A stretch of 5,677 bases of DNA from positions 1 to 5,677 of IMG/VR virus record IMGVR_UViG_2778260996_000009; one strand, given 5' to 3'. The stretch comes from a virus. Its lineage: Duplodnaviria > Heunggongvirae > Uroviricota > Caudoviricetes. Made by a program: the position numbers and the translations under genes. This document shows positions 1 through 5,677 of the stretch, one piece after another. Below the pieces are notes generated by a model. The model saw only the letters and a list, made by a program, of their open reading frames with translations, had not been told where the DNA came from and did no database searches. How positions within the stretch are numbered: the stretch's first letter is position 1; the number at the start of each line of letters is the position of its first letter.

Positions 1-375
1 GCACCACCCCGTCAGTAGCTGAACAGGAGGGACAGCTGATAGAAACAGAAGCCACTGGAGCACCTCAAAAACACCATCATACACTAAATCAGTAAGTTGG
101 CAGCATCACCTATCACCAGAGTTTAATGTGTGATTTTTTATTTATCGTCGAACCTGGATTGTTTATCATTGGCCTTAACAAAGTTAACGGCTAATAAGAT
201 TATTTCCATCACTTCGTGAGAGCTTCATGCCTTGAGAGGATCTCAATTTTCTTTTGCAATGAGACAGGCGCTTCCTGTTGTTATGGTATAGTACCCCGCT
301 ATTGAGCCTCCTGAATAGTGATGCTGAATAACATAACCCCATGATATATCGATAAAATAATCTCTACATTTGAAA

Positions 376-498
376 ATGCACGGTAATTCTGAAATGCAAA
401 AAATCAACCAAACCAGCGCAATGCCTGAAAAAACTGACGTTCACTGGAGTGGTCGGTTTAGCGTTGCACCAATGCTCGATAGGATGTACCGTTTTTGA
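376..498 (+). pseudogene. dusA: Truncated 5' fragment of tRNA-dihydrouridine synthase A, interrupted by element insertion; first ~35 codons DusA-like, then divergent tail and TGA stop
   Basis: Translation from ATG 376 (in frame with ATG 421) gives MHGNSEMQKINQTSAMPEKTDVHWSGRFSVAPMLD followed by RMYRF and a stop. The RFSVAPMLD segment matches the conserved N-terminal motif of DusA-type enzymes, which normally continue with WTDRH.RYF. The frame instead diverges after codon D at ~480 and stops at 496-498. No convincing Shine-Dalgarno lies upstream of 376, so the true start could be 376 or a later in-frame ATG. Identity rests on my recall of the DusA N-terminus, not on a search. Confidence 0.55.
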
Positions 499-500
499 AA
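470..500. other. Inferred host/element junction (att core region) inside the dusA 5' end
   Basis: This is where the DusA-like reading frame stops resembling DusA (after ...APMLD, ~480). Elements carrying dusA-specific integrases are known to insert in the 5' end of dusA. The exact core boundaries cannot be set without the other junction or an uninterrupted dusA. Confidence 0.35.
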
Positions 501-555
501 AACAACTAGTTATACACTTTGTGGGAGCCTATTGGGAACCTGAAGTTTTGCTCTT

Positions 556-575
556 TCTATTCATATCTATTCATA
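556..575. repeat. Perfect tandem direct repeat tctattcata x2
   Basis: Read directly: tctattcata at 556-565 and again at 566-575, in the non-coding region between the inferred att junction and the first element gene. Possible protein-binding site (arm-type, IHF or operator); function unknown. Confidence 0.5.
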
Positions 576-600
576 AAGCACCATTTGCTGCCTTATCTGA

Positions 601-629
601 TTGACCAAAAACAACCGCGGTTATAGACT
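601..629 (+). promoter_or_regulatory. Candidate sigma70 promoter for the 683..1673 operon
   Basis: TTGACC at 601-606 (5/6 match to the -35 consensus), a 17-bp spacer, then TAGACT at 624-629 (4/6 match to the -10 consensus), about 55 bp upstream of the ATG at 683. A short inverted repeat ctaag-N7-cttag (643-659) follows. Sequence-only prediction. Confidence 0.3.
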
Positions 630-682
630 TTGCTCCAAATAGCTAAGGCTATTGCTTAGTAAGTAAAACAGTTGAGGTTGCC

Positions 683-1222
683 ATGAATCCGTTTAACGCC
701 ATTACTTTTGCTGCATTGTGCGGGCCTCTGGCTTGTCCTGCTGCTATGGCGCAGGAGTTCATCATCCAGCCAGCCCCTGTGATTGCTAAACCTTTTGAGT
801 ACTCTCCTTCTGTTGAGGAATTCTCACGCAAAATGGAAGAGGGTAAGGAGATCTTGCAAAAGTTAACAATTGCAGCAGATGACTACTATATCTGTTTGAT
901 TGATCTTAATAGCCAAGATGCTCGCGAGTTTGTTTCCAAAAACGGGACAGATACGACAGAGGCATGCGAAATGTTCCTGCGTGCTTTTGAAGAAGAAGTG
1001 AAGCGTACAATTGAATCGCCTCTGCCTGAATTTATCAGGTCAGAACTGAAGGTTTACTGGCGTCATATTGCTAAAGCTCGCTCATCTGTCACTCGCCTTA
1101 ACAATTACATAAAGAGCATATTTAAAGAAACTGTTACTTTTAGCGGGCGCGCGGATCTTGCTGAAATTGCAGCACTAGCTAGTCACACATCAAATAAGCT
1201 AAAATCGATGCAATTTCACTAA
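683..1222 (+). CDS. Hypothetical protein, 179 aa, with hydrophobic N-terminal segment (possible signal peptide); candidate partner of the downstream YafO-like toxin
   Basis: ORF with a Shine-Dalgarno GAGGT at 673-677, 5 nt before the ATG at 683. The N-terminus MNPFNAITFAALCGPLACPAAMA-QEF is hydrophobic with an AxA-like cleavage motif but has no basic n-region, so export is uncertain. I recognise no family in it. It lies 16 nt upstream of the YafO-like gene on the same strand. Confidence 0.65.
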   Translation: MNPFNAITFAALCGPLACPAAMAQEFIIQPAPVIAKPFEYSPSVEEFSRKMEEGKEILQKLTIAADDYYICLIDLNSQDAREFVSKNGTDTTEACEMFLRAFEEEVKRTIESPLPEFIRSELKVYWRHIAKARSSVTRLNNYIKSIFKETVTFSGRADLAEIAALASHTSNKLKSMQFH

Positions 1223-1238
1223 CCGATAGCGGACGACC

Positions 1239-1673
1239 ATGCATCTAGAAGTCTCTATTAATCCAGAAACTAGAGCTGAATTTTTTGATGAAGTTTTTCT
1301 CAAATTCCCGGAGCTAGAGTCTTCTATCATTGATGATTTCAAGAGATACAAAGCAACCGGTGAGCTTCCGCATTATTTCGGTAGGGACGTTGCGTATACT
1401 CAGCCTTATGGTGCTTTTCGGGCTGGGTTGATGCATATCCATCTTTGTCTACCGCCAAACAAGTTTCCCGAGAAACTTCCACAACCGGATAGGGTCTGCA
1501 AGAAAGGTGATCCTGATAATGATGCTTGTCTTGTGTATGTCCAAGGTGAGCTTTATGAGAATAAATATTCACTCATTGCTATTATGTATCCCGATGCACA
1601 TGAAAAAGCAAGAAAACATGATGTGATGAGCTATCTGGCGCGAATTGCCCAGAATTATAAAGATGAAAACTAA
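1239..1673 (+). CDS. YafO-family toxin-like protein (ribosome-dependent mRNA interferase family), 144 aa
   Basis: The translation contains FGRDVAYT, MHIHLCLPPNKFP, CLVYVQGELYE, LIAIMYPDAHEKARKHD and YLARIA. These align with the E. coli YafO segments FGRDALYD, AHIHLANENNPFP, HLVYCQGAFDE, LIAILKPEPHKLARDN and KMAEA as I recall them. Weak SD (GGA) upstream of the ATG at 1239. The TAA stop at 1671-1673 is followed directly by a terminator hairpin. Confidence 0.65.
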   Translation: MHLEVSINPETRAEFFDEVFLKFPELESSIIDDFKRYKATGELPHYFGRDVAYTQPYGAFRAGLMHIHLCLPPNKFPEKLPQPDRVCKKGDPDNDACLVYVQGELYENKYSLIAIMYPDAHEKARKHDVMSYLARIAQNYKDEN

Positions 1674-1693
1674 CCCGCCGAAGCGGGTTTTTT
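1673..1693. terminator. Rho-independent terminator hairpin shared by convergent transcription units
   Basis: Stem ACCCGC (1673-1678), loop CGAA (1679-1682), stem GCGGGT (1683-1688), followed by a run of six T (1688-1693) on the plus strand. It sits between the plus-strand stop (1671-1673) and the minus-strand stop (1700-1702). The minus-strand side has a weaker U-tract. Confidence 0.7.
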
Positions 1694-1699
1694 GTGAGA

Positions 1700-1972
1700 T
1701 TAGTTATTTATTTTCCTATTTGTTCTTACCCTCTCCCATTCAATTCTGCCTTCTTCACGCCGTTTATCTATATATTCAGCAAGATCCTGAATGTTGATGC
1801 AGCGCTTTGCTTTCTGTGATGTACCAACACGATAAGTCGGGATCGGCAACTGGCATGCATTTGCTTTCGCTTCTGCTGTGTTAGGGCTCATACCGAAATA
1901 CTTTTGGCATACAGCTGACAGCTCAATGTTTGGGGTATTGAATTCAGCCATCAGTAAAAACAAGGTGTTCAT
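1700..1972 (-). CDS. PrtN-family DNA-binding protein (excisionase-like / pyocin-activator-like), ~90 aa
   Basis: From ATG 1972 the protein reads MNTLFLLMAEFNTP...LPIPTYRVGTSQKAKRCINIQDLAEYIDKRREEG, which resembles the N-terminus and core of PrtN-family proteins (MNT.FLLMA ... DLA.Y.D.RR). The ATG at 1972 has GGAG 6 nt upstream. The ORF track begins at GTG 1999 without an SD, so 1972 is preferred. Confidence 0.7.
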   Translation of the reverse strand: MNTLFLLMAEFNTPNIELSAVCQKYFGMSPNTAEAKANACQLPIPTYRVGTSQKAKRCINIQDLAEYIDKRREEGRIEWERVRTNRKINN

Positions 1973-2008
1973 AATTTTCTCCATCAAAACCGGCTGCACC
2001 CGGGAAAA

Positions 2009-2581
2009 TCATAATTCTGTGCTGGTGGCAGGAATTAATTTCTGCCAGATAGCGGAAACATATTTTGCCTGATGACGGGCATCAGCCAGGGCGTTGTGCC
2101 GTTCGCCATCGAAAGGCATGTCCATTTTGGGGTCGAATCCGATGGAACGCCCAAGCGTAACGATCGTGCGTACATCGTGGTCATTCCAGTACGCCCACGG
2201 GCAGATTTGTCCTGCTCGCTCATAAGCTCCACGTAAAATTACGTTGTCGAAGGTGGCCCCGTTACCCCAGACTTTTAAATATTTCGTATTGTCTGCGTGC
2301 CGGTTAATGAAATGGTTTAGTTCTGAGAGAGCATCGCTGATCGACAAAGTATCATCAATACAGATTGCAGCTCGCGCTTCAGGGCTTTGTTTCAACCACC
2401 ACAGGATGGTATCGCCGTCAGGTGTAGCTCCTTGCTTCATAGCACTGTCCAGGCTGACAACCGCATAGAATTCTTGTCCGATGTCTCCGGTTTCTGGAGT
2501 GAAGAACACCGCGCCAATAGAAACGATCGGCGCATCCTTATTTTTCCCCATCGTCTCAAGGTCGATCATTAAGTTGTTCAT
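2009..2581 (-). CDS. DEDDh-type 3'-5' exonuclease (DnaQ-like), ~190 aa
   Basis: The three exonuclease motifs are visible: MIDLETMG (Exo I, D-x-E), VWGNGATFDNVIL (Exo II) and ERHNALADARHQAKY (Exo III with His). An SD AGGAGGTG lies 5 nt upstream of the ATG at 2581. The GTG at 2584 used by the ORF track is too close to the SD. The ATG overlaps the stop of the upstream DUF551 gene (TGATG). Confidence 0.8.
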   Translation of the reverse strand: MNNLMIDLETMGKNKDAPIVSIGAVFFTPETGDIGQEFYAVVSLDSAMKQGATPDGDTILWWLKQSPEARAAICIDDTLSISDALSELNHFINRHADNTKYLKVWGNGATFDNVILRGAYERAGQICPWAYWNDHDVRTIVTLGRSIGFDPKMDMPFDGERHNALADARHQAKYVSAIWQKLIPATSTEL

Positions 2582-3159
2582 CACTTCACCTCCTGCGGCG
2601 GTTCCGGTAGCGGCATCCAGTGAGTTGCTTGCTCAATACCATTACCCGACTTAATCGTTGCATCTCCGCGCCGAAAAGTGCTTCCGGTATAGCGTGCGGA
2701 GCATATTAGCGGTTCAACCAGAGAGCTATCGAAATTCACCGAAATGAGCACGTTCTGATTCTTCTCAGGCATTCGCTCACTACAGCTTATCCAACTATCC
2801 GGAGTTACCGGAGAGTTGGTTGACGTTTCCGAGGTTTCCCGAAAATTATTGGTTGACGAATCCTTATTTTCCCGAAAGTTTCCAGCCTGAAGCATGGCGG
2901 CGCGGTGACACCAGATAATCCAGCCAAGCGCCATATCCCATGCCATGTATTCTCTATCGCCATTTTTCGCCCTGCGGCGATCTACAGATTCCCCGAAACG
3001 CTTCTCCATAAATAATTCATAGGCTGCTCGTTCATCCGATACTGCTGCCAGTGATGCCAGTGCAATTCGTGCCAGTTCCATTTGTTCGCCACGGGTAAGT
3101 CCGTTTCCAAGCGGATTTTTAATGAACAATTCAATACGTTCTTTGGTAATAGTGGTCAT
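2581..3159 (-). CDS. Phage protein with C-terminal DUF551-like domain, 192 aa, with internal 11-aa tandem repeat linker
   Basis: The C-terminus ...NVLISVNF...CSARYTGSTF...EQATHWMPLPEPP matches the DUF551 signature (W.PLPEPP) common in enterobacterial prophage early regions. An SD AAGGAG lies 6 nt upstream of the ATG at 3159. The N-terminal ~110 aa are unassigned. Confidence 0.7.
   Translation of the reverse strand: MTTITKERIELFIKNPLGNGLTRGEQMELARIALASLAAVSDERAAYELFMEKRFGESVDRRRAKNGDREYMAWDMALGWIIWCHRAAMLQAGNFRENKDSSTNNFRETSETSTNSPVTPDSWISCSERMPEKNQNVLISVNFDSSLVEPLICSARYTGSTFRRGDATIKSGNGIEQATHWMPLPEPPQEVK
2816..2881. repeat. Imperfect 33-bp tandem repeat (2 units, ~25/33 identical) inside the DUF551 CDS
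   Basis: Unit 1 (2816-2848) ttggttgacgtttccgaggtttcccgaaaatta and unit 2 (2849-2881) ttggttgacgaatccttattttcccgaaagttt. On the coding (minus) strand they encode NFRENKDSSTN / NFRETSETSTN. Confidence 0.6.
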
Positions 3160-3169
3160 GTGTTACTCC

Positions 3170-3433
3170 TTAACCCGCAGTGCTTTCAACTGACGAGGGG
3201 AACAAAATCTTTTCTTTAAATCCGGCATTCATATCATGGACAGCAACACACCAATCCATTGACGAACGATCATCAAGAGCCTCCATGATTTCATCCATGC
3301 GGCGTAGGTCATACAGGTAAATGCTTTTATCGCCAATGGTGTAAAAACCAATTTTTTTCGGTGACGGGCAGCGATCAAGAACGTTCTGTAATTCGCTCAA
3401 CCATGCCTGTTCCTTTTTTGTCAAAGTTGCCAT
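3170..3433 (-). CDS. Hypothetical phage early protein, 87 aa
   Basis: ORF with a strong SD AAGGAG 6 nt upstream of the ATG at 3433. It starts 1 nt after the stop of the upstream Ead-like gene. No recognisable motif. Confidence 0.6.
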   Translation of the reverse strand: MATLTKKEQAWLSELQNVLDRCPSPKKIGFYTIGDKSIYLYDLRRMDEIMEALDDRSSMDWCVAVHDMNAGFKEKILFPSSVESTAG

Positions 3434-3434
3434 A

Positions 3435-3833
3435 TCACTCTCCTTTGATGCGAATGCCAGCGACGCGTAGTGCGTGTTCTAAGTCAATCAGGCAAAGCCA
3501 ACTGCCATTTTCTTTAGGTATCATGACATGTCGCTTATCAGCATTTATTGGGTGCCCATATCGAAGGTCGTAGCGAGTCGGTAATTGAACTTCCCTCGCT
3601 TCCAGTTCTGTAATGCGTTTGTTTTTAGCTTCTAGTTCATCCAGCAGCGCCAGCACGGTTTCTGGTCCGGTCAGAAATTTGAAGGCGTTGAGCACATCAA
3701 TATCCACACCGTAATCTTTAAGTTCCTGTTCACTTAACAAATCATCAGCAGCTGGCAACATTAACAGGCGTTCCATTGCTTGAATTGCACGTTCCGCCGC
3801 CTCACGCAGTGCCTGATAGTCAATCTTGCTCAC
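3435..3833 (-). CDS. Ead/Ea22-like family protein, 132 aa, GTG start
   Basis: The N-terminus MSKIDYQALREAAERAIQ resembles the conserved N-terminal segment (..QALREAAEKA..) of Ead/Ea22-like proteins from lambdoid prophage early-left regions. The start codon is GTG (rc of cac 3831-3833), preceded by a strong SD AAGGAGG with a 6-nt spacer, and overlaps the upstream stop (GTGA). Confidence 0.65.
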   Translation of the reverse strand: MSKIDYQALREAAERAIQAMERLLMLPAADDLLSEQELKDYGVDIDVLNAFKFLTGPETVLALLDELEAKNKRITELEAREVQLPTRYDLRYGHPINADKRHVMIPKENGSWLCLIDLEHALRVAGIRIKGE

Positions 3834-4069
3834 TGGTTGCCTCCTTTACGGATCTGCGCAGCGATGCACGAAAAAAAAGACTCTCGCGTATGACTGTTAA
3901 GAGCTGGCGCGAACGCCGCGTTAAGAACGGCAGCATCACAGCCGTCATCGATATAGAGCGCAATTTTTTTCTCCAGGCGTGCTTTGGCTTCCTGCAACTG
4001 CATACCCCGGCACGCACGCGGGATATACTCAGCAATTTGAGCGATAGATTTTTCGTTCTGTTTAAACAT
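3830..4069 (-). CDS. Hypothetical small phage protein, 79 aa
   Basis: ORF with an SD GAGGTG 4 nt upstream of the ATG at 4069. It overlaps the upstream gene by 8 nt and the downstream GTG start by 4 nt (translational coupling). No recognised family. Confidence 0.55.
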   Translation of the reverse strand: MFKQNEKSIAQIAEYIPRACRGMQLQEAKARLEKKIALYIDDGCDAAVLNAAFAPALNSHTRESFFSCIAAQIRKGGNQ

Positions 4070-4265
4070 GCTTCACCTCGATAGGCTTGATGGTGTCGAT
4101 CAGTAGTCGGCGGCGCGTATTTTCTGCAAAGTGGCGGCGTCCGGTTTCTTTGTGGTAAAACTCGTTTTTGCCGACGACCCACATCCGCTCTGTCTGGTGA
4201 AGTTTTTTTACCTGCGGGCCGTCTTTGGTGATCACAATGCCGGTATGGGTTTTTACGATTGTCAT
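4062..4265 (-). CDS. Hypothetical small basic phage protein, 67 aa
   Basis: ORF with an SD AGAGGTGG immediately upstream of the ATG at 4265. Its start overlaps the stop of the PAPS-reductase-like gene (ATGA). No recognised family. Confidence 0.55.
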   Translation of the reverse strand: MTIVKTHTGIVITKDGPQVKKLHQTERMWVVGKNEFYHKETGRRHFAENTRRRLLIDTIKPIEVKHV

Positions 4266-5140
4266 GCCACCACCTCTTCGAATTTCAATTCCAATTGATC
4301 ACCCCAGATTTCACATGACTCTGAACACGAGCCGGTATCGAATCGCCTGGCTTGCACCATCGCCTGATACAAATTTCTGTAGTCGCTGTCGGCATACATT
4401 CTGGCAATCCCGTCAAGGCTCAGATGACCACGGTACATAACGTCTTTATTTGTCTTTCGGTGACCATCCCGGACGTGTTTACCTGTAACCAGCTCATTAA
4501 AAACTCGCATCAGACCAGGTTCGTCTTTACATGCAAGCCCCAGCTTTTGCGTGGACTTTTTGATGCAGAAAACACAGTTCCCGAGGTGCTCCGGGATTTG
4601 CAAATCAAAAGGTTGTTTATGCCACCACCGGATAACATCCGACTTATCAAAATCAGATAGCTCGGCAAGATACCGGACGCCCGATTTCGGTTTCAGCCTA
4701 CGAGGTTCGTCTGCACGAATACCCAGCCATGTGATGTAATTCCCTCGTCCGAAATGGTCATCGCAGTATTTTGTGAAGGGGGTGAGTTTTAATCTGTCAG
4801 TGCAGAACGCGCCGCCGATGTATGGCGTGCCATATTTTTTTACCATGTCCATAAACGGTTTAAGCACCGGCATTCGTGTCTGAATATCCTTTGGTTCCCA
4901 TTCCGTATAACCATTTGGCTGCCCAAGCTCTGGATTTATATCGACCTGCAACACAGTTAGCGGTATGCCCCAGAACTTCACAACCTCCCGAATAAAGCGG
5001 TATGTCAGCGGATGTTCGCAACCGGTATCCATAAAGATGTAGCAGACGTTATTTCCAGTCTTTCTTTGTTCTTCCATCAGGTGAACAAGATATGCAGATG
5101 TTCTCCCGCCAGAAAAACTAACTACATGAGTTATGCACAT
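4262..5140 (-). CDS. Phosphoadenosine-phosphosulfate (PAPS) reductase-like PP-loop family protein, 292 aa
   Basis: The N-terminal VVSFSGGRTS is the PP-loop motif (SGGxDS-type) of the PAPS reductase / ATP-sulfurylase-like superfamily. The length is typical of phage-encoded PAPS-reductase-like proteins. The start overlaps the end of the HD gene by 10 nt. A Cys-rich C-terminus (CSESCEIWG) is present. Confidence 0.8.
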   Translation of the reverse strand: MCITHVVSFSGGRTSAYLVHLMEEQRKTGNNVCYIFMDTGCEHPLTYRFIREVVKFWGIPLTVLQVDINPELGQPNGYTEWEPKDIQTRMPVLKPFMDMVKKYGTPYIGGAFCTDRLKLTPFTKYCDDHFGRGNYITWLGIRADEPRRLKPKSGVRYLAELSDFDKSDVIRWWHKQPFDLQIPEHLGNCVFCIKKSTQKLGLACKDEPGLMRVFNELVTGKHVRDGHRKTNKDVMYRGHLSLDGIARMYADSDYRNLYQAMVQARRFDTGSCSESCEIWGDQLELKFEEVVA

Positions 5141-5667
5141 TTGCGTAATTCCGATAACTCGTTAAAACGTTCCATAAACATCCCGTAGGCATGGCCTGGT
5201 GACAGTGGAATAACTTTGAACATCTCTGTTGCCGGGATGCCTTCCAGTACAGGCCAGAAAGAGCCATCATCAAGCCCGAGATCGCGGCGTTCGGTTGCCA
5301 GCATAATGAGATCGGCATATTTCACTGGCGTGCTCATAACAGGAGGTAACCCGTATTTCTCACGGATTACGGCGTCTATTTTTTCTTCCATCCGTTTATA
5401 GTCAGGAAGAAGTCGTTTCAGTGGCGCGGGGATGTCCTGGCAATATGCTTCTGTTGCATCATGCATTAACGCTTCGAAAGCAAACTCCTGCGGTACCAGC
5501 TGGCTGCAAAGCACCGCATGTTGGGCGACGCTGTAGAAGTGTGAAAGATGCCCTGCAAAGCGACAGATATTTGAGAGGGAAACTGCGATATCGTTAATCA
5601 CGATGTCGTCTTTATTTATCTTGTCATAATAAAAATGCTTCCCGGAAAAAGTTTTAATAAATGACAT
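5131..5667 (-). CDS. HD-domain phosphohydrolase (YfbR/YfdR-like 5'-deoxynucleotidase family), 178 aa
   Basis: Contains the H...HD...D metal-binding pattern (VAQHAV ... EALMHDATEAY ... D). An SD GGAG lies 6 nt upstream of the ATG at 5667. The size and sequence resemble the prophage HD proteins of E. coli (YfdR-like), from memory. Confidence 0.8.
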   Translation of the reverse strand: MSFIKTFSGKHFYYDKINKDDIVINDIAVSLSNICRFAGHLSHFYSVAQHAVLCSQLVPQEFAFEALMHDATEAYCQDIPAPLKRLLPDYKRMEEKIDAVIREKYGLPPVMSTPVKYADLIMLATERRDLGLDDGSFWPVLEGIPATEMFKVIPLSPGHAYGMFMERFNELSELRKCA

Positions 5668-5677
5668 TTTGTTCTCC

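Follow-up and report, generated by a model that had tools for sequence, protein, structure and literature searches.

An integrase-distal att junction of an mEp460-like lambdoid prophage in the 5' end of Escherichia coli dusA

Overview

The DNA considered here, called the window, is a stretch of 5,677 nucleotides at the start of a tailed-phage record (IMGVR_UViG_2778260996_000009). From position 111 to position 5677 it is almost certainly the integrase-distal junction, plus the first 5.2 kb, of a lambdoid prophage of the mEp460/phi1720a-02 type lodged in the 5' end of the Escherichia coli dusA gene. The phenomenon is already known and well documented; close relatives have been characterized by experiment, and among E. 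coli genomes it is very common. Below, we describe the anatomy of the junction, its distribution, the architecture of related elements, and two neighbors of the att site: the end of an IS1 element on the host side and a pair of cargo genes on the phage side.

The displaced dusA fragment and the att core

A short open reading frame on the plus strand, at 376 to 498, starts with ATG and runs for 40 codons to a TGA at 496 to 498. Codons 1 to 35 are native to dusA, and the last 5 are derived from the phage. The first 35 residues, MHGNSEMQKINQTSAMPEKTDVHWSGRFSVAPMLD, are identical at 35 of 35 positions to the N terminus of the intact, 345-amino-acid E. coli DusA (E = 3e-24). Residues 36 to 40 are RMYRF, unrelated to DusA, and the recombinant frame thereby reads ...APMLD, RMYRF, stop. 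The DNA upstream of this stub is that of the host: 265 bp of native, plus-strand intergenic sequence (111 to 375) are 100% identical to uninterrupted loci, such as that of E. coli EC-129 (positions 1501 to 1765 of locus L004), and presumably contain the native dusA promoter. The whole of 111 to 479 matches uninterrupted dusA loci at 100% identity, far beyond chance, and the match ends exactly at 479. In these loci a DUF2713 gene lies farther upstream; its end is about 98 bp short of the equivalent of position 111, so the gene is outside the window.

Where exactly does host sequence give way to phage? A four-way alignment was made of the window, the empty site of EC-129 (L004), the far junction of the lysogen EC332 (L003), and the attP region of mEp460 (L002). 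On the left arm (376 to 479), the window is identical to attB at 104 of 104 positions, versus 87 of 104 for attP. On the right arm the preference reverses, with 56 of the first 58 aligned positions from 480 agreeing with mEp460 attP versus 22 of 58 with attB. On the left, attB and attP last differ at 471, and on the right they begin to differ again at 480, so strand exchange must fall within the 8 bp ATGCTCGA at 472 to 479, a core that is identical in attB, attP, attL, and attR and that encodes Met33-Leu34-Asp35(GA) of DusA. The junction is a clean site-specific recombinant, host type up to 479 and phage type from 480. [quoted passage not shown] Read from this far end of the prophage, the insertion point is 104 bases into dusA, and the native stub that is left amounts to 35 codons. 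Beyond the core, a noncoding prophage arm (480 to 682) matches the phages PhiR40_1, PhiR55_1, mEp460, and 1720a-02.

The initial annotation had read the frame at 376 to 498 as a DusA-like N terminus that diverges and then stops, and had proposed an integration junction with a displaced native fragment. Both proposals are borne out, by the residue identities and by the four-way alignment, respectively, and aligning the window to uninterrupted dusA, as had been suggested, gives the breakpoint and the core. The duplicated core expected at the other end is another matter, as a search of the window found no second copy of it and no long repeat of any kind. This is what would be expected if the other junction is about 40 kb away. 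As the second junction is outside the window, the repeat was compared with attR in EC332, a related lysogen; 86 of 104 positions are identical and the 8-bp core is perfect. No known RNA was found in the window with Rfam, and a promoter scan performed at chance level (4 sites versus 4.1 expected), so no promoter is assigned.

A word on nomenclature is needed. If the map is drawn along the direction of dusA transcription, the present junction is the left one; a junction of the same type was termed attR by Balasubramanian et al. 2019 (PMC6328086).

Distribution of the junction

A 121-bp probe spanning the junction has a full match in 663 of 5426 complete E. coli genomes, including those of serotypes O157:H7, O121:H19, and O91:H21. 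At unoccupied sites in sampled genomes, the match ends at probe base 60, which corresponds to window position 479. An index of public assemblies contains the exact 40-amino-acid stub product in about 10,000 blocks, and all 8 of the 8 further loci retrieved with this peptide carry the same junction sequence. Among GTDB species representatives, the phage side of the junction is found in a single Escherichia sp. contig. The closest locus is that of E. coli CP042947.1, which is 99.98% identical over window positions 111 to 5677, with one mismatch.

Some of these loci have been remodeled. In E. coli R11 (NZ_CP107155.1; L027, 3300 to 3720), the match to the window begins only at base 464 and the prophage directly follows zur; a deletion has apparently removed the host flank, comprising most of the stub, the region upstream of dusA, and the DUF2713 gene. 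In three loci of the O157:H7 type (L006, L008, and L011), the same junction is followed by a remnant of only about 10 kb, with three NleG-family type III effector genes beside DinI and the integrase, and with fragments of tail fibers.

Architecture in relatives and proposed mechanism

How does a phage integrate within a protein-coding gene that it also repairs? The dusA-specific integrases were defined by Farrugia 2015 (PMC4482086), who also showed excision of their elements as circles; upon integration the native 5' end of dusA is displaced and the element supplies a new one. The integrase of mEp460 was counted among the DAI homologues in that work, along with many Escherichia examples. The Stx2d phage phi1720a-02 (KF030445; Citrobacter rodentium) has been studied most directly. 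It integrates 100 bp into dusA, both of its junctions have been sequenced, and its phage-encoded dusA' ORF restores the reading frame; a 7-base core lies within a 21-bp motif, and Int is required for excision and the formation of attP (Balasubramanian 2019, PMC6328086).

The lysogen EC332 displays the complete arrangement. The same left junction is followed by a lambdoid prophage of about 44.7 kb that ends with DinI, a 365-amino-acid integrase, and an intact dusA of 345 codons. This integrase is 99% identical to mEp460 gp22, and a tyrosine-recombinase C-terminal domain is detected in it. The rebuilt DusA (345 amino acids) has nine differences from the native protein, all of them in residues 1 to 35; the mimic carried by the phage stands in for the native 5' end. 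mEp460 itself has tail fiber and DinI genes ahead of int, which is on the minus strand; next comes attP, with its dusA-like 5' ORF, and then two cargo genes, the gene for a PrtN-type excisionase, and those for exonuclease, DUF551, and Ea22. With attP located between them, int and xis are parted by integration and come to lie at the two extremes of the prophage.

From these relatives a course of events can be proposed. A dusA-specific tyrosine integrase, whose gene lies outside the window at the far end of the prophage, would have recombined attP with attB within dusA codons 33 to 35. The phage attP has about 105 bp imitating the 5' end of dusA at approximately 84% identity and closing in the core ATGCTCGA; the long, imperfect similarity of attB and attP is found only on the dusA 5' side of the core. 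At the integrase end, a phage-borne promoter and 35 mimic codons would be joined in frame to host codon 36 and those following, so that full-length DusA is kept. What remains at the end seen in the window is the host promoter with native codons 1 to 35, which now run into five codons of the phage and a stop. Excision would need the integrase plus the PrtN-type Xis, encoded at 1700 to 1972. The suggestion that a dusA-associated integrase family was responsible thus holds up, the element belonging with the mEp460 relatives in the DAI-mobilized group (PMC4482086). The integrase, the second junction, and the rebuilt dusA are all absent from the window; that integrase and rebuilt gene persist in the present genome is what we infer from relatives, CP042947.1 included, and the prophage would presumably still be excisable.

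As in other DAI elements (PMC4482086), the insertion point is roughly 100 bp from the dusA start, the integrase-distal junction retains the displaced native 5' end, and a replacement would be supplied by the element; in such elements the two junctions form imperfect direct repeats that surround a short, conserved core with a semiconserved 21-bp motif. The only extras in the present case are the IS1 element in the host flank and the location of the integrase end outside the window, and nothing essential differs. The genomes of mEp460 (NC_019716) and the induced phages PhiR40_1 and PhiR55_1 share the same att arm and the same layout of int, attP, cargo, xis, exonuclease, DUF551, Ea22, and YfdR. 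Together with 1720a-02, they are 94.7 to 98.8% identical over 40 to 47% of the window, starting at the att region. mEp460 differs in its cargo pair, of 177 and 57 amino acids, which is unrelated to the 179-amino-acid protein of the window. phi1720a-02 shares DNA with positions 472 to 5677 (95% identity over 42% of the window) and carries stx2; no stx gene is present in the window, whose span excludes the late region. The core is 7 bases as reported for phi1720a-02, versus the 8 identical bases in the E. coli comparison.

The element is like lambda in using a tyrosine integrase and a small excisionase, with xis at the end of the leftward early operon. Lambda has int and xis side by side, both to one side of attP, whereas in the present type attP and a cargo slot lie between the two genes: in the window, xis is 1.2 kb from the junction with no int between, and relatives have int at the far end of the prophage. 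A further difference from lambda is that the phage inserts within a protein-coding gene and repairs it.

Could the junction have another origin or status? Phage genomes of this group carry a dusA-like 5' ORF at attP, and mEp460 matches the window from 373 on, so one might take the dusA-like segment for the phage's own mimic and the window for the attP of a free or circular phage, or for the integrase-proximal junction. The four-way alignment refutes this reading, which we regard as having virtually no chance of being correct: 376 to 479 is of the host type at 104 of 104 positions, 17 of which differ from the phage mimic, and 111 to 375 is host intergenic DNA, while the phage has different DNA there, about 85 bp of noncoding sequence and then int. 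It is also very improbable, if marginally less so, that RecA-dependent homologous recombination between host dusA and the 84%-identical mimic made the joint in place of an integrase. About 105 bp of 84% similarity would be available on one side of the core, but such homology is one-sided relative to the core, the same 8-bp breakpoint window recurs in 663 genomes and in all the loci inspected, and Int is required in the close relative phi1720a-02 (PMC6328086).

A more serious contender, still unlikely but deserving some weight, is that the junction is a fossil and the prophage a degraded remnant that cannot excise, having lost int or been truncated. The O157:H7-type loci mentioned above keep no more than about 10 kb from this junction to int, and insertion sequences have been active nearby, with IS1 at 1 to 110 and an IS5-like insertion in the prophage of the near-identical CP042947.1 (L022). 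Yet all the ORFs in the visible 5.2 kb are intact, and they match those of the full-length prophage of EC332 and of the induced phages PhiR40_1, PhiR55_1, and mEp460.

An IS1 end at the left edge of the window

What of the first 110 bases? The initial annotation took all of 1 to 375 for native host DNA. This is correct for 111 to 375, as described above, but positions 1 to 110 are the left end of an IS1 element on the minus strand, 100% identical to the ends of hundreds of IS1A and IS1B copies on chromosomes and plasmids of E. coli. Only these terminal 110 bases of IS1 fall in the window. Alignment with an annotated IS1A copy and with the uninterrupted locus shows the IS1 terminal inverted repeat ending exactly at 110 and the native sequence beginning at 111. 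The insA gene starts (GTG) at 55 to 53 and runs off the left edge of the window; the minus strand from 55 to 2 encodes the 18 N-terminal residues of InsA, VASVSISCPSCSATDGVV. A frame at 3 to 95 had been put forward as the 3' end of an upstream host gene. It is indeed open (3 to 92, with a stop at 93 to 95), but it is antisense to insA, and the proposal fails.

Between the IS1 end and the old dusA start are 265 bp, and the insertion of IS1 at this place would be an event independent of the integration of the prophage. No complete E. coli genome covers window positions 1 to 700 in a single piece, and the joint at 110/111 is absent from complete E. coli genomes and from the GTDB species representatives. 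CP042947.1 and related genomes have native sequence at this position and no IS1. The joint is thus either strain specific or an effect of the contig edge. That it is an assembly artifact, with the repeat edge of a short contig mistaken for a true insertion, is a suspicion encouraged by the same absence from those genome sets, by the native sequence at the site in the near-identical CP042947.1, and by the fact that the window begins 110 bases inside a multicopy repeat. We nevertheless consider an artifact improbable; the joint is placed exactly at the IS1 terminal inverted repeat, as it would be for a real insertion, and assemblers usually enter repeats only along real read paths. If the insertion is a true one, a 768-bp insert flanked by a 9-bp duplication of TATCACCAG is expected.

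A cargo pair beside the junction

On the phage side, two plus-strand genes separate the att arm from xis. The first (683 to 1222) encodes a protein of 179 amino acids that has an N-terminal hydrophobic helix, its best-conserved part, followed by a helical bundle, and that matches phrog_8416. It has no match in Pfam, NCBIfam, or PADLOC. An AlphaFold2 model (pLDDT 78.8) is an all-helical bundle, and a PDB sequence search and a Foldseek search with the model returned only generic helical-bundle matches, none with E <= 0.001 (best E = 0.15). A relationship to mEp460 gp23, the occupant of the same slot in that phage, was considered and rejected (E = 0.2).

The second gene (1239 to 1673), 16 nt downstream, encodes a 144-amino-acid, YafO-family toxin-like protein (PF13957, E = 1.9e-21; 76.5 bits versus a cutoff of 25). 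Against the NCBIfam equivalog model for E. coli YafO it scores 75.8 bits, under the cutoff of 153. No YafN (Phd/YefM-type) antitoxin gene is found directly upstream; the gene for the 179-amino-acid helical protein is there instead. The PADLOC defense-system models match neither cargo gene, and a literature search of titles and abstracts for a YafO partner other than YafN returned nothing specific. The pairing is kept even outside dusA prophages: homologues of the 179-amino-acid protein in an ENNIH3-type Enterobacteriaceae genome, Pantoea, and Serratia each have a YafO_toxin gene 12 to 17 nt downstream. The pair is probably a toxin-partner cassette.

The interval between the core and xis (480 to 1700; seen in L006 to L013 and L021) is a site of cargo swapping among otherwise similar prophages. 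The variants found in it are the mEp460 type (177 plus 57 amino acids), the 179-amino-acid and YafO-like pair of the window, and a SocA/Panacea-domain protein with a second gene. In every case, the cargo genes follow the displaced host dusA promoter and share its strand. As the cargo genes lie just beyond that promoter and the stub, with no terminator predicted in 499 to 682, they could possibly be driven by the host promoter. One speculation, to which we give rather little credence, is that the pair is an undescribed toxin-partner module, involving a non-YafN antitoxin family or forming a phage defense pair, that travels as a cassette and might be transcribed from the displaced dusA promoter only after integration.

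Between the convergent cargo genes (the YafO-like gene being the last) and xis is a hairpin at 1672 to 1689 resembling a bidirectional terminator. It has a 7-bp stem with 5 GC pairs and a T-run on both strands, TTTTGTGAGA after the plus-strand hairpin and AGTTTTCATC after the minus-strand one.

Excisionase and early-left genes

The remaining genes of the window are all on the minus strand. The PrtN-type excisionase (Xis) at 1700 to 1972 is recognized by PF11112 (E = 4.4e-24) and by phrog_1300, "excisionase" (E = 2.5e-40). Its ORF could extend to a GTG at 1999, and its counterpart in mEp460 is annotated as an excisionase. The early-left (nonessential) prophage genes, assigned by Pfam and PHROG matches, occupy 2009 to 5667 and comprise a 3'-5' exonuclease (2009 to 2584), DUF551 (2581 to 3159), an ORF at 3170 to 3433, Ead/Ea22 (3435 to 3833), two more ORFs (3830 to 4069 and 4062 to 4265), a PAPS-reductase-like protein (4262 to 5140), and the HD-domain 5'-deoxynucleotidase YfdR (5131 to 5667). 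Within the DUF551 gene, an imperfect, 33-nt tandem duplication (2816 to 2880; 78% identity) makes a ...FRE(N/T)... segment occur twice in the peptide. Mosaicism is strong in the early-left region, with at most 47% of the window in any phage record and at most 76% in any complete RefSeq E. coli genome; the mosaic matches are to mEp460-like and Stx phages.

Implications

Overall, the window is one further instance of a described mechanism, found in about 12% of complete E. coli genomes, and raises no new question; the one point left mildly open is what function the exchangeable cargo next to att serves. There are practical consequences for annotation. The junction gives the exact boundary of the prophage, at the core at 472 to 479, and a short pseudogene labeled "tRNA-dihydrouridine synthase, partial" beside such prophages represents the native 5' end of dusA, displaced by the integration. 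The gene itself is not lost in such lysogens, because the phage rebuilds it.
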